Shown: positions 50,777 through 63,605 of the stretch, piece by piece
Position numbering within the stretch: the first letter of the stretch is position 1
Layout: every line of letters begins with the position of its first letter
Source of the DNA: Minisyncoccota bacterium
GTDB taxonomy: Bacteria > Patescibacteriota > Minisyncoccia > Phycocordibacterales > UBA5272
DNA length: 64,000 nucleotides
Assembly (NCBI GenBank): GCA_031972295.1
Contig: DALYEZ010000002.1
Span: forward strand, 9,596-73,595
Direction: 5' to 3'
Position numbers and translations under genes: made by a program
The notes under the pieces: generated by a model
What the model saw: the letters and a program-made list of their open reading frames with translations, nothing else
What the model was told of the DNA's origin: nothing
Database searches by the model: none

Positions 50777-50899
50777 TTCCCATCTTTGTAGTCTAAATAC
50801 AAAAAGTCCCCAGAAGGGGGCTTTTGTATTTTATTTACTTAGAGTAGAGTTCCTGATGCCTGACTTTTTTGGTATAGTGATGAGGTTCCAAAAGGGTAT

Positions 50900-50972
50900 G
50901 CATCTATAGCTCAACGGTTAGAGCACACGGCTTATATCCGTGCGGTTGCAGGTTCGAGTCCTGCTAGATGCA
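50900..50972 (+). tRNA. tRNA-Ile (anticodon UAU)
   Basis: GCATCTA-TA-GCTCAACGGTTAGAGC-A-CACGG-CTTATAT-CCGTG-CGGTT-GCAGGTTCGAGTCCTGC-TAGATGC-A. Anticodon loop C-U-UAU-A-U. Confidence 0.75.
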
Positions 50973-51032
50973 CAAAGGAGTGACACGGTCTTGACTCTCA
51001 CGTTACGTGATGGTTTATGCTATTTTATGTGT

Positions 51033-51797
51033 ATGTCATACACAGTAAAACAACTTGCTCTCCTTGCGTCTATAAGCATTCGCACACTCCATTTCTACGA
51101 CGAAATAGGCCTTCTTAAGCCTGCACTCGTGAAGGGAAACGGTTATCGTGTATATGAGGAAAATGAACTGTTAAAATTACAGCAGATACTTTTCTTTCGG
51201 GAGCTTGAGTTTTCTCTTGAAGAAATACAGATGATTGTGGATGATCCTAAATTCAATATGCTTGATGCCTTGCAGGACCACCGCAAAAGCATTGCAATAA
51301 AGAAAAGGCGTCTGGATGGACTGCTTAAAACTATAGACAAGACAATCAGCAAAGTACAACATAAAAAAAATATGAAAGACGAAGAATTATACGGATCTTT
51401 TACGAAAGAAGAGATGGAAAAATATCAAGAAGAAGCTCGAAAAAAATGGGGCCACACTGATGCATTTAAACAATCTCAAGAACGAGTAAAGAAAATGGGT
51501 AAAGATGGTTTGAATGAGGTGTTGAAGGAAAGCGGAAAGCTAACTGAAGAAATCGCTTCATGTATGAAAAGTGGTGAGCATCCAGAGAGTGAGAAGGTTC
51601 AGATACTTATCGCTCAGCACTACGAAGGCTTACGAGCATTCTATGAGCCTAATCTGGAAATGTATCGTGGTCTAGGAAATATGTATGTTGCTGATGAACG
51701 ATTCAAGGCAACGTATGAAAAAATTGCCGAAGGATTGGCGCAGTTTATGCGCGATGCGATGATATATTATTGCAATGTAAAGGAAGGAAAAAAATAA
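51033..51797 (+). CDS. MerR-family transcriptional regulator with TipAS-like C-terminal domain
   Basis: MerR HTH YTVKQLALLASISIRTLHFYDEIGLLKP...GYRVYEENELLKLQQILFFRELEFSLEEI; helical C-terminal effector domain. Upstream codons of the listed ORF overlap the tRNA and are excluded. Confidence 0.7.
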   Translation: MSYTVKQLALLASISIRTLHFYDEIGLLKPALVKGNGYRVYEENELLKLQQILFFRELEFSLEEIQMIVDDPKFNMLDALQDHRKSIAIKKRRLDGLLKTIDKTISKVQHKKNMKDEELYGSFTKEEMEKYQEEARKKWGHTDAFKQSQERVKKMGKDGLNEVLKESGKLTEEIASCMKSGEHPESEKVQILIAQHYEGLRAFYEPNLEMYRGLGNMYVADERFKATYEKIAEGLAQFMRDAMIYYCNVKEGKK

Positions 51798-51831
51798 AGC
51801 CCCGAACGTGATACACGTCCGGGACTATGGC

Positions 51832-52161
51832 TCATGCCGCAATTCGCTCGGATATTCCGAGCTCGAGACGGCAGATAATGTCGATACCTCCGAATTCTCC
51901 CTTAGTGTAGGTCCAGGTTCCGTACCCGATCACAATTACATCGGAACAGAGGAAGGACTCGAAGTAGTTTCTTTGCACCGAGAGTTCCCAGATCGGAAGT
52001 TTTGTTTCTCGTTCAGTTCCGATCCAGCGGACCCTGATGATTCGACCCACCTCGTTTTCAAACGTGTAAGTCAGATTTTCATCGATTTCCACCTTCTTGC
52101 CGTCGAAAAAAATACCACTGTCCGGCTCTGGGCCAGACTTGATTTTAGTGATAGTTGCCAC
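51832..52161 (-). CDS. hypothetical protein
   Basis: 109-aa ORF with more protein-like composition than the overlapping + strand ORF 51808..52179. Unassigned. Confidence 0.3.
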   Translation of the reverse strand: MATITKIKSGPEPDSGIFFDGKKVEIDENLTYTFENEVGRIIRVRWIGTERETKLPIWELSVQRNYFESFLCSDVIVIGYGTWTYTKGEFGGIDIICRLELGISERIAA

Positions 52162-52330
52162 ACTCCCTCCCAGGTATGATAGAACAACAGCCCATCCAGC
52201 TGCTTATATATACTGCTATACTAGCTCATTTTAGTCAATAGGGGAAGGGAAAAGGGCTCTTTATTAAGATTCGCTTGTTTTCTTTGATACTATATAAAGA
52301 TAATATTATTAAATCCATAGTCATTAATTC

Positions 52331-55300
52331 ATGTCATATCATCAATCGTATAGAACCATTCAGGCAATGTTTCCGTTGAGGGTAGTGGTTTTAGTAGTAA
52401 TCTTTTCTCTAACTTTCTCACCACTCACTCCTCTTTTAGCCCAAGAGGTTTCAGATTCTACTAGTATCTCTGTAGGAGAAACAAGTTCACAAGTACCCCT
52501 TCCTGTTGATACCGAAATGGCCACGTCTCACGAGTCCCTGCAGGCTATTCTCCCAGAAATTAATCCAGATATAGAGCAAACTACAGATTCTGAAGTAGTT
52601 GTTGATGAATTATCTAAAGACGGTACTGAAAAAGAAACCACCTTGCAACCTTCTGCTGGTAATTCTGCGACTGCCTCACTTGCTTCGAATAGTGACTCAG
52701 GAAAAGTAATTAGGCCTAACATTGACCAATCGACAGGGGCTCTTATTTATGACTATCCAATGGAAACTCCAAATGGATTTAACCAGCAAAATCCGAATTT
52801 AAAACTCACATATAATTCTCAGGATGTAAAAAATGATTCAGTATTTGGTTACGGATGGAATGTTTCAATTCCATATATTGAAAGAGTTAATAAACATGGG
52901 GTCAATGACTTTTATTCTGGAGACGGTATTGATTTTGCTTCATCTGTGTTTGGTGAATTAGTTCAAAAAACCACTACAACATATGTGCCAAAATCAGCAT
53001 CTGATATTGTTTTGATTTCTTTTGTAAATAATGTGTGGACATACATAGATAAAGAGGGTACTACATACGTGTATGGATTAACTTCTGCTGGACGTCAGGA
53101 TGACCCCTCCAACTCAGCACATATCTACAAGTGGATGCTTACTTCAGTAACTGATTCGAATGGAAACAGTATTAGCTATACGTACACTAAGGATCAAGGA
53201 CAAATTTACCCTGACACAGTTAATTATGGGGGGATATATCAGATTGCTTTTGTAAAGGTTGTACGTGGAGAAACCATTGAATCGTATAAGCCAGGCTTTT
53301 TAGTTGCAACTACAGAGATAATTAATGAAATACAGTTAAAGGTCTCTGGAGTATTGAAAAAAAAATATGCTTTTACATATACGCAGGGAGACAATGCGAG
53401 TCGATCAATTTTAAACTCAGCGCAAATCTCCGTATATGATTCTTCAAATAATTTAGCAGTGCAGCCCACTACAACCTTTAGTTACTCAATTCGTTCGACA
53501 CCAAACTGGAACACCTCATCCAATATCACGTTTCCTCCAGGTACGAATCTCCTCAATGGGCATTCCATAGCAGTTGATTTTAATGGTGATGGATATACTG
53601 ATATTCTTACTTCTTTCGCAGATCCGAATTCAATTACCACTCAGGTAGCATATATAAATAATGGTGATGGAACATGGGCAACATCAACCGCATATACACC
53701 ACCGGTAATTTTTTATTACGACAGCGGGGCTGGTTTGAGTAAAGGCTACACTACACTTGATCTTAATGGAGATCAGCTCCCAGAGCTTTTTAGGTCGGTG
53801 ATGGAATGTAATGGTGTGGTTTGTGGGAATAGTTCAGTTATTTATATCAACACAGGAAGTGGTTGGGTATCAAGTACAGATACTATCCCAGTAGGTCTTC
53901 TTTATCTTGGGAGCCCAATAGCAGACATGGCTGATTTTAATGGTGACGGTTTAGTAGATATTTATTCTTCGGCAAGAAATTTCAATGGAAATAATTTTCC
54001 TAGAAAAGTATATCTTAATAATGGTGATGGTACCTGGCTTGATGACACCGCAGCGTGGACATTTCCTTACAGTTCAGGTTCAAGGTCTATCTATACCGAT
54101 CTTAATGGGGATGGGATAAGTGATATTATCTTTGATAATTGGTATTACACAGGGGGTGCTTGTAATTGCACAACATATAACCCAAATAATAGGGCATATA
54201 TTGGAGATGGTAAGGGGGCATATGTGGCCTCAATAAGCTATATCTCACCATACTCATATAGTTCATATCCAGCGGGTCAACCGAGTCCTGGCTATGACTG
54301 GGGTAACAGAGTATTTGATATAAATAATGATGGACTTGTCGATCTTGTGTATGGAACTAACCCTTCAGGAGTTGGAACTGTAAGAAGTTCTACTTATGTT
54401 AATACAAGTAATATTTGGTCCTTAGATATCCCATCGTTGGTATTACCGTCATCTATTTTGAAATTTAGTGATAACGGAAATTTTACAATTGGAAATCCAT
54501 TAGATATGGACGCTGATGGCATTCAGGAAATTTATTATCAAACAACTATTTTTAAAAACCAGAGCGCAAAGCATACCGATCTTCTTTCTACTATTACTAT
54601 GCCAAGTGGAGGTACGGTGGCTATTGCATATCAATCAAGTGGTAAATATAAAGATTTAAATGGAAACCTTTTGAACGCACAACTTCCATTTGCTGTGCAA
54701 ACAGTGCGGTCAATAACAACTACAGATCCAGTCGCTAGTGTTGTAGGCACTTCAAGCTACACCTATTCGGGCGGTGTATATTACTATGCCACGCCTTCTG
54801 ATCGAAAGTTTGCTGGTTTTGAAAAAGTATCAGAATCTAGACCAGACGGAAGTGTTGTCGTAAACTACTATCATCAAGGCAACGGAACAAATAACAGTAA
54901 TTATGAATACAATGATAGTGTGGGAAAAATTGGTTATGTATATCGCACCGATATTGTAAATAGTTCTGGAACTATCCAAGCTCGATCAACGACTAAGTAT
55001 AATTCAATCAATACAGTAACGGGGGCATATTATGTATATCCGACTCAAACAGTTGATGAAATGAACGGAAAGAATACTGCTACCGCGTACATCTATGACA
55101 CAACAACAGGGAATCTTTCGAGTAGTCTTGAATATGGAAAGGTTGTGGTGACCGACCCACTTACTTTCACCGATGCTGGTTTGGATATTAAGTCGACTGA
55201 GTATACTTATGCCACAGATGCATCGTCAACAACTTACAAAGTTTCTAGTAAAGCAACATATGATCAGGTGGGTACCAAGGTAAACGAGACTAAATATTAT

Positions 55301-58300
55301 TACGATATGTTAGCGTTTGGTTCATTGGCGGTCGGCAATAATACCAAAGTCTCACAACTGAAGACGGGAAGTACGTTTATTGATAGTGTCCAAAAAACGT
55401 ACAACAGTTATGGGCACATTACCTCAAGTACTGATGCTCGAAATAAAACAACGCAATTGGGATATGATACAAACAATTTGTATATCGCAACCGTTACTAA
55501 TCCTTTATTGCAAGTGATGAGGTATGTATATGAGTACAATACAGGTAAACCGACGGAGGTTATTGATCAAAATGGATTCACATACCGAACTTCATACGAT
55601 GGTCTTGGGAGAGTTCTGAGTGAAACAATACCTGACGCGTATGGCACGAGTGTTACAAAAACCCTCTATACGTACACAGACATTCCAAATGCGGTATCCG
55701 TACAAAAAACAGATTATCTCAATGATCATAATGGAGTCGAAACATATCAGTATTTCGATGGCCTTAATCGGCTTGTGCAAGAAAGAAAAGAGGCTGAAGT
55801 GGCAGGGACGTTTAATGTTCGGGATATAAGATATAACAATATTGCTTTAGTGGAAAGTGAATCATTGCCGTATGTTGCCACAGGGGCAGGAAAAACAAGT
55901 CCAACAAAAAATGCAGCACTCTACACTACGAACACATATGATCCATTGCAACGAGTTACTGCTATTACAAATAGTATTGGTGTTACGAGTAATATTTATA
56001 ATGATTGGAAGACCACCGTCACAGATCCGAATGGCAAAGTAAAAAAGTATTATAAAGATGCTTACAATAATTTGGTAAAAGTTGATGAAGTAAATGGTAG
56101 TGCAACTTATTCGACAAATTACACTTGGAATCTAAATAATAAACTCACAAATATCACTGATGCACTTGGAAATGTTCGTAACTTCACATACGACGGACTC
56201 GGACAACGTCTGACTGCCGAAGATTTGCACAATCCCGCGGACACATCTTTTGGTACTTGGACGTACGTTTATGATCTAGCGGGTAATCTTACTCAAACAC
56301 ATAATCCAGAAAATAAAATCGTACATTATACATACGATGATATTAATCGCGTAAAAACAGAAAATTATATTAATGAGACAGGAATAGAAATAGCATACGA
56401 TTACGATACGTGTCCTAATGGAGTAGGAAAACTTTGTACCGTGACACAATCAACATCAAAAGTTGTGTTTGAATATACCCCATCGGGATTAGTAAGTAAG
56501 GAAAACAGAGAAATTCATAAATCTCTTTTCTCAACCTCATTCTTGTATGACAGACAGGGAAACGTTGTACAGAGCGTGAGTCCGGATCAGGATACATTCT
56601 ATCGTAACTATAACAACGCAGGACTTCTTGAAAAAATACAATATGGTCAAGCGGGAATGAAGTCAATGATGCGTACCATTGTTGATGATTTAGATTACTC
56701 ACCGGTAGGTCAAATTACTTACCAGAAAAACGGTAATAGTACAGAGACTGTGAATACCTATGATTCTAGTAAGTTGTATCGTCTTACAAACAAAATTACT
56801 ACAACTTTGAATAACTCTCCAAGTGGACATAAAAGAGTAAACGCACTGGTAGTAGGAGGTGGTGGTGGTGTAAGTGGTGGCACTGGCGGTGGCGGTGCAG
56901 GTGGATATCAAGCAAGTACTACCTTAGCAGTACTTGCTCAAGCTTATCCTATTACAGTAGGGGCAGGCGGATCTGGATTTAATAATGGTGGGAACTCGAT
57001 CTTCAGCACTCTTACTGCCTTAGGTGGCGGGGCAGCTTCCGACGGCTTCAGTTCTGGTCAAAATGGAGGTTCTGGTGGCGGTGGTTACGGACAGTTTGTT
57101 CCGCAAGGTAATGGTGGTGCTGGAAATGTAGGGCAAGGAAATAGTGGTGGAAATGGATTTGGTATGGGGAGCGCAACTACAGCAGGAGGCGGTGGCGGTG
57201 CATCAACTGCAGGAACTAATGCTTCTTCAGGACAAGGAGGAAATGGGGGAAATGGTGTAGTTAATTCTATTTCAGGATCTTCTGTTGTTTATGCAGGAGG
57301 TGGGGCAGGCAGGGCTATCATAGGTATAAACGGAATTCCTGGAACAGGTGGTGGAGGAGCTGTTGGAAGTAACGGTATAGACGGATTGGGAGGCGGTGGC
57401 GGTGGACAAGTCGCAGGAGTTGATACTAAGGGTGGATCTGGTGTTGTTATTATTGCATACCGTACAGATGGAAGTGATGGGGTACTAAATACTTCTACAG
57501 GAGGTGTAAAGACAACGTCTGGTGCGTACACTATACATACCTTTACAGGTAATGGAATTTTTACAGTAAATCCTCCATCAAATGGCAGTGCTCGTATCCA
57601 AGATATCAGTTACACCTACGACAATAATGGCAACATTACACAGATAGTAGACGCTTCAGATACAGCAGGAGCGAAAACGGTTACGTACACATATGATGAC
57701 CTTAATAGAATGCTTTCAGCTACGGCTACTAATGTTGCTTCTGGACAAAGTGGATATACGTACAACTACACGTATGATGCGATTGGAAATATCACAAATG
57801 GCCCTGTGGGAGCGTATGTTTACAACGGTATAAGTGCCTCTAATTGGGCAAATCCTCATGCTGCAACTTCAATTGCTGGAACTATTCTTACGTATGATAA
57901 AAGTGGCAACATGCTTTCTGATGAGGTGCTTACAAATACGTGGAACTACAAGCAGCAACTTGTGCAAGTAGAGAAAGATAAAAATACTTTTGAGTACACC
58001 TATGATCATGAAGGAAATCGTCTGCGAGTAATGAGTGATGGAGAAGATACATATTATCCAAATAAGTTCTACAGCGTTGACGTATCTGATAAAAGAACAA
58101 AAAATGTTTTTGCGGGCGACCAACTAGTTGCAACTATTGAAACGAGCACTTCGGCTAATAACATATTTTATAACCACACCGACCACCTTGGTTCTGTGAA
58201 TGTGGTGACTGATGCATCTGGTACTCAAACAAATCTTCTCGACTACTTCCCATACGGATCAAAAAGAATTGAAAGTGGTACTAACGTTGGGGAGAGAGAA

Positions 58301-59083
58301 TTCATCGGACAAATATTTGATGATGAAAGTGGTTTAAGTTATCTGAATGCACGGTATTACGATGGGAATCGAGGACGGTTTATTAGTCAGGATCCATTGC
58401 ATTGGGACATGTCCCAGGAGTATCTCGTAGATCCGCAGCAGATGAATAGTTACAGCTATGGAAGAGGTAATCCACTCAAATATATTGACCCTAATGGAAA
58501 GAAAGTAGAGTTAGTTGTTCGTCCCGTATTCACAAAATATGATGGGCATCTTTTCTACCATATTACCCCTGAGAATCCCGATCAAATTAATGTAAATGGA
58601 GTTCCTGCTGGAACTAAAGAATTTAGTATAGGGGGTTACAATAGGGGGGGATTTCTTGGTATTGGCAATAAATTAACACCTGAGATTGGTTACGAGGGAG
58701 GACAAGCTTCAAACACAGATCTACCTTATCTTCTTGGTCAGAAAGAAGCAACAGCAAGAATTACCATCATGTCTCCAGAAGGGCAATCTGATACTGATTT
58801 TATAAATGCTTTAGGCACATCTGCGAATAATGTTAATAAAGAAAGCTATTTCACTTTCGGTCAAAGATTAAAATTTGGAAACGCAAATTCTAACAATTTT
58901 GCTCATGAAATTGGGTCTCAGGTTGGAGTGGGGGATCAAGTTACAGAATTTAGCAGTCTTATGACAAATAAAATTTATATTCCAGGTGGTGATAGAGGTT
59001 TACCGACAAACTCATTGCGTCAGATGATTAGACAAGGAATTGACCAAACAGGTAAGCAAATCAGTAAATTGTTCAAAAACTAA
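52331..59083 (+). CDS. giant secreted polymorphic toxin: SpvB-like domain + FG-GAP/VCBS-type repeats + RHS/YD repeats + RHS repeat-associated core + variable C-terminal domain
   Basis: Signal peptide. SpvB block NPNLKLTYNSQDVKNDSVFGYGWNVSIPYIERV...DFYSGDGIDFASSVFGELV. Six DxNGDG-type repeats (DFNGDGYTDIL, DLNGDQLPELF, DFNGDGLVDIY, DLNGDGISDII, DINNDGLVDLV, DMDADGIQEIY). More than 15 YD repeats (YTYDxxGN). RHS core ...NARYYDGNRGRFISQDPL...DPNGK, followed by an approximately 195-aa non-repetitive C-terminus. Confidence 0.85.
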   Translation: MSYHQSYRTIQAMFPLRVVVLVVIFSLTFSPLTPLLAQEVSDSTSISVGETSSQVPLPVDTEMATSHESLQAILPEINPDIEQTTDSEVVVDELSKDGTEKETTLQPSAGNSATASLASNSDSGKVIRPNIDQSTGALIYDYPMETPNGFNQQNPNLKLTYNSQDVKNDSVFGYGWNVSIPYIERVNKHGVNDFYSGDGIDFASSVFGELVQKTTTTYVPKSASDIVLISFVNNVWTYIDKEGTTYVYGLTSAGRQDDPSNSAHIYKWMLTSVTDSNGNSISYTYTKDQGQIYPDTVNYGGIYQIAFVKVVRGETIESYKPGFLVATTEIINEIQLKVSGVLKKKYAFTYTQGDNASRSILNSAQISVYDSSNNLAVQPTTTFSYSIRSTPNWNTSSNITFPPGTNLLNGHSIAVDFNGDGYTDILTSFADPNSITTQVAYINNGDGTWATSTAYTPPVIFYYDSGAGLSKGYTTLDLNGDQLPELFRSVMECNGVVCGNSSVIYINTGSGWVSSTDTIPVGLLYLGSPIADMADFNGDGLVDIYSSARNFNGNNFPRKVYLNNGDGTWLDDTAAWTFPYSSGSRSIYTDLNGDGISDIIFDNWYYTGGACNCTTYNPNNRAYIGDGKGAYVASISYISPYSYSSYPAGQPSPGYDWGNRVFDINNDGLVDLVYGTNPSGVGTVRSSTYVNTSNIWSLDIPSLVLPSSILKFSDNGNFTIGNPLDMDADGIQEIYYQTTIFKNQSAKHTDLLSTITMPSGGTVAIAYQSSGKYKDLNGNLLNAQLPFAVQTVRSITTTDPVASVVGTSSYTYSGGVYYYATPSDRKFAGFEKVSESRPDGSVVVNYYHQGNGTNNSNYEYNDSVGKIGYVYRTDIVNSSGTIQARSTTKYNSINTVTGAYYVYPTQTVDEMNGKNTATAYIYDTTTGNLSSSLEYGKVVVTDPLTFTDAGLDIKSTEYTYATDASSTTYKVSSKATYDQVGTKVNETKYYYDMLAFGSLAVGNNTKVSQLKTGSTFIDSVQKTYNSYGHITSSTDARNKTTQLGYDTNNLYIATVTNPLLQVMRYVYEYNTGKPTEVIDQNGFTYRTSYDGLGRVLSETIPDAYGTSVTKTLYTYTDIPNAVSVQKTDYLNDHNGVETYQYFDGLNRLVQERKEAEVAGTFNVRDIRYNNIALVESESLPYVATGAGKTSPTKNAALYTTNTYDPLQRVTAITNSIGVTSNIYNDWKTTVTDPNGKVKKYYKDAYNNLVKVDEVNGSATYSTNYTWNLNNKLTNITDALGNVRNFTYDGLGQRLTAEDLHNPADTSFGTWTYVYDLAGNLTQTHNPENKIVHYTYDDINRVKTENYINETGIEIAYDYDTCPNGVGKLCTVTQSTSKVVFEYTPSGLVSKENREIHKSLFSTSFLYDRQGNVVQSVSPDQDTFYRNYNNAGLLEKIQYGQAGMKSMMRTIVDDLDYSPVGQITYQKNGNSTETVNTYDSSKLYRLTNKITTTLNNSPSGHKRVNALVVGGGGGVSGGTGGGGAGGYQASTTLAVLAQAYPITVGAGGSGFNNGGNSIFSTLTALGGGAASDGFSSGQNGGSGGGGYGQFVPQGNGGAGNVGQGNSGGNGFGMGSATTAGGGGGASTAGTNASSGQGGNGGNGVVNSISGSSVVYAGGGAGRAIIGINGIPGTGGGGAVGSNGIDGLGGGGGGQVAGVDTKGGSGVVIIAYRTDGSDGVLNTSTGGVKTTSGAYTIHTFTGNGIFTVNPPSNGSARIQDISYTYDNNGNITQIVDASDTAGAKTVTYTYDDLNRMLSATATNVASGQSGYTYNYTYDAIGNITNGPVGAYVYNGISASNWANPHAATSIAGTILTYDKSGNMLSDEVLTNTWNYKQQLVQVEKDKNTFEYTYDHEGNRLRVMSDGEDTYYPNKFYSVDVSDKRTKNVFAGDQLVATIETSTSANNIFYNHTDHLGSVNVVTDASGTQTNLLDYFPYGSKRIESGTNVGEREFIGQIFDDESGLSYLNARYYDGNRGRFISQDPLHWDMSQEYLVDPQQMNSYSYGRGNPLKYIDPNGKKVELVVRPVFTKYDGHLFYHITPENPDQINVNGVPAGTKEFSIGGYNRGGFLGIGNKLTPEIGYEGGQASNTDLPYLLGQKEATARITIMSPEGQSDTDFINALGTSANNVNKESYFTFGQRLKFGNANSNNFAHEIGSQVGVGDQVTEFSSLMTNKIYIPGGDRGLPTNSLRQMIRQGIDQTGKQISKLFKN

Positions 59084-59091
59084 AAATAAAT

Positions 59092-59382
59092 ATGAGAAGT
59101 AGTAACTATATTAAGCAGTTTGCAATCATATATGGCTCACTTGTTGTAGCATTAATTCCCTATGCTATTTATAAACTCTTTGAGATGCAAGATTATCCAG
59201 GATCACTAAATGAAACTTTGGAAGGAGCTCTACTGATACTATGTTTTCAAATAATTGAAGCACTAATTTTAGTTGGAATTACAAAATTCGTTGAGGTCAG
59301 TTTTAAGCAGGTCATTTCAATGAAGTATTTATTTTTAATTCCTCTAGTTCTACAATTATTTTTACTGTATCTAGTTATTTAA
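59092..59382 (+). CDS. small membrane protein, candidate cognate immunity protein of the RHS toxin
   Basis: 96 aa with 3 TM helices. Starts 9 nt after the toxin stop. Assigned by position only. Confidence 0.4.
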   Translation: MRSSNYIKQFAIIYGSLVVALIPYAIYKLFEMQDYPGSLNETLEGALLILCFQIIEALILVGITKFVEVSFKQVISMKYLFLIPLVLQLFLLYLVI

Positions 59383-59594
59383 AGTCGGCGCTTTTCTTGA
59401 GTTAAAAACAAGCGGGATCTTTCTCTTTGGAATTAGTTACAAGAAAATTTCTTTCAGAAAATAAGGAATCTCGCCCTACTGGCGCTGTACACCTTTTCTA
59501 TTTTCTCAAAGCAGAGCTTCTCTAAAATAAAGAAAAGGTTTTTCGATTCCCCCACGAAAATGCTCCCAGCATTTTCTCACTCCACAAAAATACA

Positions 59595-59625: not shown

Positions 59626-59629
59626 TTTG

Positions 59630-60050
59630 TGGAGATGGGGGGAATCGAACCCCCGTGCATAGAAATCTAGGATGTGTAGGTCTACAATGCGTAGCGGCAT
59701 TCTTGCCTTCTCGAAGGAAGGCTAACAATGAGACGTGGTGAACGACGCAAGAATCGTCTCATCGGTCACTGCGTATTTAAATCTGAAAGTGCAGTGAGGC
59801 TTTCAGATCGAGTGTACGATGTATAATCGTTACCTTTCTACGATACACGAGCGTATAAAGGAACGCTTGGCAGAAGTCTGCAGAGCAGAGTCTTACGCAA
59901 GAGCAAAAGCACGAGCCTCACTTGCGTAAGGTGATGCGATTGCTGTGTAGCTTTTAGCTGCACTACTTTTTTGTATACTGAGTACGAGGAAATATACTTC
60001 TCGGCACTGCGTACACACAAGATAAACCATGTCGATGCCAGGTCATCCCC
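59630..60050 (-). ncRNA. ssrA: tmRNA (SsrA), standard one-piece
   Basis: The minus-strand 5' end GGGGATGACCTGGCATCGACATGG matches the tmRNA consensus GGGGnUGAnnnnGGnUUCGACnnGG. The 3' end ACGGGGGTTCGATTCCCCCCATCTCC-A is a tRNA-like T arm + acceptor with the G3:U pair. It sits immediately downstream of smpB on the same strand. Putative tag frame ends ...EARAFALA-TAA. Confidence 0.8.
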
Positions 60051-60052
60051 AT

Positions 60053-60505
60053 TTATTCTTCAAAGCCTTGGTGAACAATCCGACGCATACGAAGTTTGTC
60101 GTCTTTGGTGCGGAGATCTTCACGCTTGTCAGCTTTTTGTTTTTGTCTACAAAGAGCAAGCTCCACCTTTACGTGGTTCTTTGAATTATACAACGAAAGT
60201 GCGATGAGTGTCAACTGAGTTTGGGATATTTTGCCCACCATTCTGACGATTTCTGATTTCTTTAAGAGAAGTTTTCGTGTGCGATAGGGGTCGTAGTCGC
60301 TCGGAGTATTGGCTTGCTGATAGGGGGGAATGAATGCGCCAACTAAAAAGACTTCACCTCCACGAATAATTGCTTTTGCTGCCTCAAGCGAGCCCTGCCC
60401 ACCTTTGATAGATTTTACTTCATAGCCAAAAAGCTTGATGCCCGCCTCGACGGTTTCCTCAATAAAATACTGGATATGTGCTTTTTTATTTGAAATAAGA
60501 GCCAT
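60053..60505 (-). CDS. smpB: SsrA-binding protein SmpB
   Basis: YEVKSIKGGQGSL...GEVFLVGAFIPPYQ...RTRKLLLKKSEI...GKISQTQLTLIALSLY...VKVELALCRQKQKADKRED. Confidence 0.9.
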   Translation of the reverse strand: MALISNKKAHIQYFIEETVEAGIKLFGYEVKSIKGGQGSLEAAKAIIRGGEVFLVGAFIPPYQQANTPSDYDPYRTRKLLLKKSEIVRMVGKISQTQLTLIALSLYNSKNHVKVELALCRQKQKADKREDLRTKDDKLRMRRIVHQGFEE

Positions 60506-63422: not shown

Positions 63423-63605
63423 GCCTTTACTCCTTAGGTGGAGCTTTTCATTTGGAAACAAAAGAGAAGCGCCATTTTGAGTCGAGTGCGTTGTTTGACA
63501 AATACATATCAAAAACAAGAAATGTAATATACGTTCTTTAAACCCGAACGTAGTATTACAAAAACAAAAAGTATATTTTATTTTTTGCCTCGATTTATTT
63601 CAAAA

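Follow-up and report, generated by a model that had tools for sequence, protein, structure and literature searches.

A candidate Sec-exported RHS toxin with a predicted serine-type cargo in a Minisyncoccota genome

Architecture of the RHS gene

The DNA considered here is a stretch of 64,000 nucleotides from contig DALYEZ010000002.1 of a Minisyncoccota bacterium, a member of the candidate phyla radiation (CPR); "the window" refers to the whole of that stretch. At 52331..59083, on the plus strand, it carries one unbroken open reading frame (ORF) that begins with ATG and encodes a protein of 2250 amino acids (aa), with a small ORF close behind it (Table 1). An initial annotation had described the large ORF as an RHS polymorphic toxin in which an SpvB-like head, FG-GAP repeats, YD repeats, an RHS core and a C-terminal domain are strung together, and this architecture is confirmed by Pfam and NCBIfam matches as far as the Rhs core. 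The presence of such a toxin in a CPR genome is likewise upheld, both by the profile hidden Markov model matches and by a syntenic relative, L004, in a Paceibacteria genome. The reading that we favour, with confidence slightly above even, is that the ORF encodes an RHS polymorphic toxin of TcdB/TcaC type that is made as one chain, is exported by Sec, carries as its cargo a Ser/His hydrolase directed at the envelope or at lipids, and has a cognate immunity gene. An exact-protein look-up of the 2250-aa product found no record.

The Pfam scan of the protein returned RHS_repeat (E value 5.9e-33), SpvB (3.9e-17, in two stretches), FG-GAP_3 (2.4e-15), FG-GAP (8.8e-6) and TcdB_toxin_midN (5.6e-13), and no match to TcdB_midC. 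The NCBIfam matches were YD_repeat_2x (3.9e-18) and Rhs_assc_core (4.8e-17, aa 1972-2056, covering profile positions 1-75 of 76). The motifs quoted in the initial annotation lie where expected, namely GYGWNVSIPYIERV in the SpvB region at aa 173-186, RYYDGNRGRF at 2008 and DPNGK at 2053-2057; in addition, the Rhs core contains the ISQDPL ... IDPNGK motif, and a DHLGS motif occurs at 1951. The count of six DxNGDG propeller repeats is acceptable, five of them being strict DxNxD motifs (416, 477, 535, 590 and 663) and the sixth, near 725, a degenerate DMDADG.

Residues 8-37 form the sole hydrophobic segment of the protein in a Kyte-Doolittle scan. Because this single segment is N-terminal, and because the window also carries the genes for SecY and SecDF, we propose that the protein is exported by Sec. 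A scan for sigma-70 promoters upstream of the toxin gene gave nothing above chance.

The initial annotation had noted a Gly-rich segment without recognising it as an inserted domain. It matches the Pfam model Gly_rich_2 over profile positions 9-226 of 226 (3.6e-13; 50.5 bits against a cut-off of 24.3), is 37% Gly and includes eight GGG(G)xG-type runs; neither the PDB, queried by sequence and by profile, nor NCBIfam yielded a match to it. In composition it resembles the glycine-rich lattice domains of phage fibres and ALK, which bind receptors or ligands (PMC9608196). By analogy, the insert probably has a binding function and would lie outside the shell.

Table 1. Features of the toxin locus, in window positions
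Feature	Position	Strand	Basis
Predicted Sec signal peptide, aa 1-38, ...PLLAQ/EV	52331..52444	+	Hydrophobic core aa 8-37; cleavage site inferred
S/T/E/D-rich low-complexity linker, aa 39-130	52445..52720	+	Composition
SpvB-like domain, ~aa 131-395, approximate boundaries	52721..53515	+	Pfam SpvB
FG-GAP / integrin-like beta-propeller, ~aa 400-740	53528..54550	+	Pfam FG-GAP_3, FG-GAP; DxNxD motifs
TcdB_toxin_midN-like segment, aa 744-841	54560..54853	+	Pfam PF12256
YD/RHS repeat shell, first part, aa 842-1494	54854..56812	+	RHS_repeat, YD_repeat_2x
Gly_rich_2 domain between YD repeats, aa 1495-1711	56813..57463	+	Pfam PF21722
YD/RHS repeat shell, second part, aa 1716-1971	57476..58243	+	Collinear with L004; DHLGS
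Rhs repeat-associated core, aa 1972-2057, ends DPNGK; predicted aspartyl autoprotease and plug	58244..58501	+	TIGR03696
C-terminal toxin domain (CTD), aa 2058-2250, 193 aa	58502..59083	+	Predicted permuted NlpC/P60-like fold
Candidate immunity gene, 96 aa	59092..59382	+	Three hydrophobic segments; 8 bp past toxin stop codon
Divergent 109-aa ORF	51832..52161	-	Variable island; membership in toxin system uncertain

The C-terminal domain, its family and its small neighbour

Sequence and profile searches of Pfam, NCBIfam and the PDB gave no match for the CTD, in agreement with the initial annotation, which had put the unmatched domain at approximately 195 aa (193 aa follow DPNGK). That annotation could name no fold for it. 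An AlphaFold prediction based on six sequences was weak, with a predicted local distance difference test score (pLDDT) of 59, and one based on 49 family members was confident, with a pLDDT of 90.7 and a predicted template modelling score of 0.85. The latter model is alpha/beta and enzyme-like, ends in a long helix (aa 172-192 of the domain), and resembles the circularly permuted NlpC/P60 papain-like group, the relationship being remote and the scores modest.

Conservation within the family points to an active site. In the alignment of the 49 members (mean column identity 29%), position 16 is His in all, position 24 (His+8) is Asp or Glu in 43, and Tyr116, 14 residues before the nucleophile position, is kept in 48. 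Position 130 lies within an N-[SC]-N-N-F box and is Ser in 45 members and Cys in the other 4; this alternation of Ser and Cys at one invariant position is the reason for taking it as the putative nucleophile. The model places residue 130 at the very start of a helix and His16 on a strand. The corresponding residues of the window protein, H2073 (58547-58549), E2081 (58571-58573), Y2173 (58847-58849) and S2187 (58889-58891), are proposed as catalytic on the basis of the alignment and the model; the window CTD contains no Cys at all. Their order and spacing agree with the tetrads of YiiX (H49/E64/Y115/C128) and PPPDE1 (H38/E47/Y101/C108) (PMC3142127). In enzymes of the permuted NlpC/P60 group the S1 pocket is hydrophobic and lipids occur as ligands, such as the fatty acid bound by YiiX (PMC3142127). 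The replacement of the papain-like Cys by Ser is rare, and the available part of a survey of papain-like families catalogues it in a few uncharacterised ones (PMC10318531). Membership of Tox-PL1 was considered and rejected, since the Tox-PL1 order, given as NC-H-DxQ in the accessible sections of the 2012 toxin survey (PMC3482391), is opposite to that of the CTD.

The CTD family is rare and undescribed. Five relatives came out of a word-indexed search of 5.8 billion proteins, and the 49-sequence profile returned the same five; among 1.84 billion cluster representatives, an exhaustive profile search picked out 60 at E<1e-3, and a metagenome scan with the CTD alignment found two loci. In every relative with enough sequence the CTD starts right after the DPxG[KER] of the Rhs core, and homology to other carriers ends at the same point. 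The same CTD occurs on different carriers, and different CTDs occur on related cores. The domain shuffling anticipated in the initial annotation is thus seen, and the carriers involved are all of RHS type. They are of three kinds: SpvB/FG-GAP/RHS proteins of 2000-3000 aa (P0006, P0021 and P0027), short proteins in which a signal peptide precedes an Rhs-core tail and the CTD, and internal "orphan" cassettes. For example, in locus L002 (1-4412) a truncated main RHS gene with another CTD and a small ORF is followed by an IS200-type (Y1) transposase and then by an orphan core-tail with this CTD and a small ORF, and L010 (229-5891) contains three consecutive cassettes of Rhs-core tail, CTD and small ORF, with differing cargos.

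Several observations on individual carriers may be added. Another cargo in L002 has a weak likeness to a restriction-endonuclease-like domain (MTES_1575, E 0.004). Gly_rich_2 is absent from P0006 and also from P0021, P0027 and P0032; the latter three have other insertions of ~150-600 aa elsewhere in the C-terminal shell, those of P0021 and P0027 had no family match in the scans, and P0027 has a ~200-aa unit present twice. The RHS shell of P0021, P0027 and P0032 seems to tolerate and swap externally displayed domains. P0004 (182 aa, on three contigs of <=1.2 kb) joins an RHS-type signal peptide and acidic linker, resembling the N-terminus of P0006, to the C-terminal half of the CTD, and is either the product of a large internal deletion or recombination or an assembly collapse. 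P0007, P0009, P0012, P0014, P0022, P0053 and P0054 (350-520 aa) consist of a signal peptide, the last 150-250 shell residues and the CTD; they are too short for a cocoon, and may be either working mini-toxins or orphan cassettes that were mis-called. In a Saccharibacteria metagenome-assembled genome (MAG), the ORF pairs at L005 9905-13208 and L006 9908-11330, of ~380-400 aa and then 91-100 aa, adjoin RHS-protein matches at contig ends and, judged by sequence, look like further orphan toxin/immunity cassettes.

The initial annotation missed the 96-aa ORF directly downstream, which we regard as the candidate cognate immunity gene. Its product has hydrophobic segments at 6-27, 42-71 and 74-96 and a conserved loop, Y-x-G-x-L-N-E-x-x-E-G, and it has no NCBIfam match. 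In L008, L001, L002 and L003, a homologue of this ORF follows the CTD homologue at a distance of 1-16 bp, and for both proteins identity to the window counterpart declines together (immunity candidate/CTD: 44/74, 44/67, 29/54 and 23/40%). More generally, a small polytopic membrane ORF stands directly after the CTD in all seven of the seven loci examined, and these ORFs belong to two unrelated families. The second family, behind a more distant CTD subgroup, consists of polytopic membrane proteins of 102-113 aa (L009 4610-4918 and L010 3471-3812). The L009 and L010 proteins are 46% identical to each other and ~20% to the window ORF, and both end in WG-x-GEG-x-C-x-x-YFF. The membrane character of the immunity candidate raised the idea of a pore-forming cargo, which was rejected, the CTD having no hydrophobic segment and an alpha/beta, enzyme-like model.

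A variable island between conserved flanks

L004 was found as a syntenic contig by a scan of GTDB species representatives. It comes from a MAG of 'Candidatus Paceibacteria' (Minisyncoccia/Minisyncoccota, CPR), the closest genome; the same scan placed more distant relatives of the RHS protein in one Saccharibacteria MAG. The flanks of the two loci are nearly identical (SmpB 100%, FtsH 97.3% and a 232-aa kinase 97.8% in protein; 87-92% in DNA), and they enclose a variable island that spans 50800-59444 in the window and 9081-17550 in L004. The L004 allele of the toxin (L004 10001-17254) is one ORF of 2417 aa. The two RHS proteins are collinear, with 47% identity over aa 1-2057, and in L004 a Gly_rich_2 domain (58.4 bits) occupies the same site, right after two Bact_surface_Ig-like domains.

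The identity between the two alleles is distinctly mosaic. It amounts to 89% in the signal peptide, 21% in the linker, 45% in SpvB, 26% in the propeller, 56% in midN, 81-84% in the inner shell (84% over aa 1076-1494 and 81% over aa 1716-1971), 49% in the Gly-rich domain, 62% in the core and 19% in the CTD, so that the propeller is among the most diverged non-cargo modules, with only the linker lower. The promoter and signal region is 93% identical in nucleotides. On the 3' side, the nucleotide sequences cease to be similar at 58384, still within the Rhs core, and similarity restarts at 59444. A breakpoint within the Rhs core is the classic recombination point of Rhs toxins. The L004 CTD and the small ORF downstream of it, which encodes a soluble protein of 95 aa, are unrelated to those of the window and have no Pfam match. 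The initial annotation had taken the C-terminus as the position of a variable effector, and this holds, homology to L004 stopping at the Rhs core and the CTD being replaced together with the downstream gene. The pattern suggests, at the level of sequence, several recombination breakpoints and diversifying selection on exposed modules. The locus is a strain-variable hot spot at which recombination would swap cargo and immunity, and also exposed carrier modules.

Other features of the island and its surroundings were recorded. The 109-aa ORF is divergent to the toxin gene and has a strong 13-bp terminator-like hairpin at 51826-51798 on the minus strand. Its L004 counterpart is just 43% identical, which places it within the variable island. 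It matches no family, lacks a signal peptide and could be an orphan immunity or accessory protein. A gene for a MerR/TipAS-type regulator (50940-51797) is absent from the matching place in L004, and tRNA-Ile(TAT) (50900-50973) has the opposite orientation there. Directly downstream of the toxin-immunity pair, on the minus strand, a transfer-messenger RNA gene (tag peptide ASPYASEARAFALA) adjoins smpB in the interval 59627-60505, and at 63599 begins a 16S rRNA gene that continues beyond the window end (64000). The window also contains housekeeping genes for DNA polymerase A, EF-G, SecY, SecDF, RecA, FtsK and FtsH.

No TcA-type translocator was found among the scanned window ORFs, the other large ORFs belonging to housekeeping families or having no match, and none of the neighbours in L004 and L008 was obviously of TcA size in the gene and ORF tables inspected. 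A role as TcA-like partner was weighed for a 1103-aa neighbour and dismissed, since PG_binding_1 is its only match, it has no TcA domains, and it is conserved at 88% identity outside the variable island.

Relation to known systems, proposed mechanism and significance

As a carrier, the protein fits the TcdB/TcaC class in textbook fashion; the novelty lies in the CTD toxin/immunity family. The class was defined in 2012 by the combination of signal peptide, SpvB, integrin-like propeller and RHS (Zhang, Aravind et al., PMC3482391, in the sections available). The window locus shares with it these modules as well as the variable toxin and the standalone recombination cassettes, has a candidate for the downstream immunity gene of the class, and differs in having Gly_rich_2 in the shell and a CTD with no Pfam or NCBIfam toxin match. 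In the accessible portion of the survey, CPR or Patescibacteria are not among the lineages of the class (PMC3482391). The initial annotation had called such a toxin unexpected in a CPR genome, which goes too far, as the architecture has been defined since 2012 (PMC3482391) and RHS toxins of CPR bacteria have been described (PMC6031116, PMC6851277). These are a 2487-aa RHS/YD toxin with an immunity gene in the T. rhizospherense Saccharibacterium, which has extra PA14 and galactose-binding domains (Starr et al. 2018, PMC6031116), and a TccC-like protein noted in a Gracilibacterium (PMC6851277). The window protein resembles the T. rhizospherense toxin and WapA in being a large Sec-type RHS/YD toxin of cells without an outer membrane, with a neighbouring immunity gene (here a candidate). 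WapA of Bacillus lacks the SpvB/propeller head, and the T. rhizospherense toxin differs from the window protein in accessory domain (here Gly_rich_2) and in cargo.

Compared with the B-C cocoon of Photorhabdus TcdB2-TccC3, the window protein has the same SpvB, FG-GAP, TcdB_midN, YD shell and core ending in DPxG before a hypervariable cargo. In contrast to that cocoon, it is a single chain with a shorter shell (~1700 aa minus the insert) and no TcdB_midC match, no TcA was found, a candidate immunity gene is present, and the cargo looks antibacterial. We do not file it as a Tc toxin, given that no TcA was found among the window ORFs scanned and that a candidate immunity gene is present, and the Tc toxin label of the initial annotation, which also lacks support from a TcA in the tables of related loci, was a step too far.

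The closest functional precedent for the cargo is Tox-Act1, an effector of the Salmonella type VI secretion system (T6SS) with a permuted NlpC/P60 core (H43/C151), which acts from the periplasm as a phospholipase on phosphatidylglycerol and phosphatidylethanolamine; its immunity protein, Imm-Act1, consists of two transmembrane helices (Nicastro et al. 2026, PMC12994826). In both systems the His lies ~110 residues before the nucleophile (H43/C151 and H16/S130), and in both the immunity protein, here a candidate, is small and made of transmembrane helices. The CTD differs in that its nucleophile is Ser in 92% of members and its carrier is of RHS/Sec and not of T6SS type; the immunity candidate, with three hydrophobic segments, belongs to other families than Imm-Act1. 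With respect to YaeF/YiiX (C92), PPPDE/DeSI (C97), LRAT/PLAAT, CLN5 and TseH, the CTD has Ser instead of Cys, extra elements and no significant Pfam-model match. A Ser in place of the catalytic Cys beside a kept His is also found in DUF3750, DUF2145, DUF2272, menin and APC5867 (Ozhelvaci and Steczkiewicz 2023, PMC10318531, available part). Those Ser-based families are not reported as toxin cargo in that part of the survey (PMC10318531), and a minority of CTD members keep Cys. The CTD would thus be a serine-type variant, and not a member, of the permuted NlpC/P60 group, lacking both the catalytic Cys and a significant profile match.

The cocoon, plug and autocleavage steps of the mechanism proposed here come from solved Tc B-C and Rhs cocoons. 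By analogy with these, SpvB, the six-bladed FG-GAP propeller, TcdB_midN and the YD repeats would fold into a closed shell, which the Rhs core would plug before cleaving itself after DPNG(K), leaving the 193-aa CTD free inside, while the Gly-rich domain would be displayed on the exterior, probably as a binding module. The cargo would be an acyl/amide hydrolase of permuted NlpC/P60 type with His2073 and Ser2187 as its main catalytic residues and Glu2081 and Tyr2173 in support, Ser replacing Cys. Its target would most likely be membrane lipids or lipid-linked envelope molecules at the outer face of the cytoplasmic membrane of neighbours, and the producer would be protected by the 96-aa three-helix membrane protein; the fold family and the analogy with Tox-Act1 are the grounds for proposing such a target and immunity within the membrane. 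In its fullest form the proposal is tentative, and we hold it as possible rather than probable: the cargo may represent a natural Ser-nucleophile branch of permuted NlpC/P60 (LRAT/YiiX/Tox-Act1-like) enzymes, a lipid-attacking toxin directed at the single membrane of CPR-type or monoderm cells and neutralised in the membrane by tiny polytopic proteins, with the RHS cocoon delivered without TcA, T6SS or type VII secretion system and with exchangeable propeller, glycine-rich and immunoglobulin-like (Ig) modules recognising the target.

It is important to note what weighs against the favoured reading. No sequence or profile search ties the CTD to LRAT, C92, C97, DUF6695 or DUF4105. A Pfam scan of the 49 members with E values up to 10 gave only Peptidase_C97 (0.021) and DUF3750 (0.063), in one member each, and Foldseek of the CTD against the PDB gave no significant match. 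In an hhalign comparison of the family with human PLAAT3 (approximate sequence), only NSNNF and NCEHF were aligned, at E 0.11, which we take as no more than a hint. As far as the available part of the survey goes, no natural family has been proven to use a Ser nucleophile for catalysis within a papain-like scaffold (PMC10318531). The assignment of the 96-aa protein as immunity protein is a candidate one that draws its support from gene linkage only. No delivery partner was found; finally, the substrate could be lipid, peptidoglycan or protein.

The alternative that holds up best keeps the carrier and the fold and makes the cargo an amidase or endopeptidase of the cell wall (peptidoglycan or peptide stem), like canonical NlpC/P60 toxins. 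We consider this unlikely, though it deserves real weight. The order of His before nucleophile and the best matches point to the permuted group, in which the members characterised so far work on lipids or acyl groups. The immunity candidates of both unrelated families are embedded in the membrane and have very short loops, and this agrees better with neutralisation at the membrane, the situation of Imm-Act1, than with a soluble inhibitor of the active site.

Somewhat less probable again is the view that the protein serves mainly as the weapon or attachment device of an epibiont against a host bacterium or another phylum, instead of in competition among related CPR bacteria, with propeller and Gly-rich domain tracking host receptors. 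The most diverged carrier modules between the two near-identical genomes are indeed the propeller (26%), the linker (21%) and the Gly-rich domain (49%), the L004 allele has two extra surface Ig-like domains, and Gly-rich domains of phage fibres and ALK are binders of receptors or ligands (PMC9608196). The linked, co-diverging immunity candidate, however, implies that the producer's own envelope is susceptible, a hallmark of competition between kin or near-kin, and no host is known; the two roles are not mutually exclusive.

It is improbable that the CTD is an inactive papain-like scaffold, which lost its Cys and acts by binding, or that its likeness to NlpC/P60 is coincidental and its mechanism unrelated. 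The Ser in place of Cys in 45 of the 49 members, the unproven activity of Ser-based papain-like families (PMC10318531) and the lack of a significant link by Foldseek or sequence methods would all agree with this. Yet all four tetrad positions are conserved despite the low mean column identity, with nothing other than Ser or Cys at the nucleophile position, and a dead enzyme would be unlikely to retain His in 49 of 49 members and Tyr in 48; moreover, the CTD is not hydrophobic, which makes pore formation an unlikely other mechanism.

There is very little probability that the protein is the B-C part of a three-component Tc (ABC) toxin aimed at eukaryotes, with TcA elsewhere in the genome. SpvB, FG-GAP propeller and TcdB_toxin_midN are together the TcB signature, and the visible portion of the genome is just 64 kb. 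Against this stand the failure to find a TcA-like ORF among the scanned window ORFs or to notice one in the L004 and L008 tables, the candidate immunity gene, and the occurrence of the CTD family in orphan cassette arrays typical of antibacterial Rhs loci; in addition, TcdB/TcaC-class polymorphic toxins are described with an export route of their own in the accessible sections of the 2012 survey (PMC3482391). As for an assembly chimera joined within the glycine-rich low-complexity stretch, a concern that the initial annotation had raised and that the repetitive, misassembly-prone nature of Gly-rich DNA makes understandable, it is scarcely credible and can be regarded as ruled out, as the segment is a full-length match to the curated Gly_rich_2 model, composition is even along the toxin gene, and the independent L004 MAG has the same module order and insert site in one ORF collinear over aa 1-2057.

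The favoured reading, a Sec-exported RHS toxin with a hydrolase cargo, gives the locus a wider interest. The conservation pattern of the CTD family predicts a His/Ser, occasionally His/Cys, permuted NlpC/P60 hydrolase, and the family would be well suited to asking if serine can do the work of cysteine in papain-like scaffolds. After Tox-Act1, it would be a second, independent pairing of a permuted NlpC/P60 toxin with membrane immunity, which suggests that lipid-directed toxins of this fold are wider spread and more diverse than had been supposed. Organisms of this kind have ~1 Mb genomes and live attached to other cells. Near-identical housekeeping genes, together with differing cargo, immunity gene, propeller and insert, point to strong diversifying selection on antagonism and recognition in such organisms, and the locus could serve to study how cargo is delivered by an RHS cocoon that has no known injection machine.

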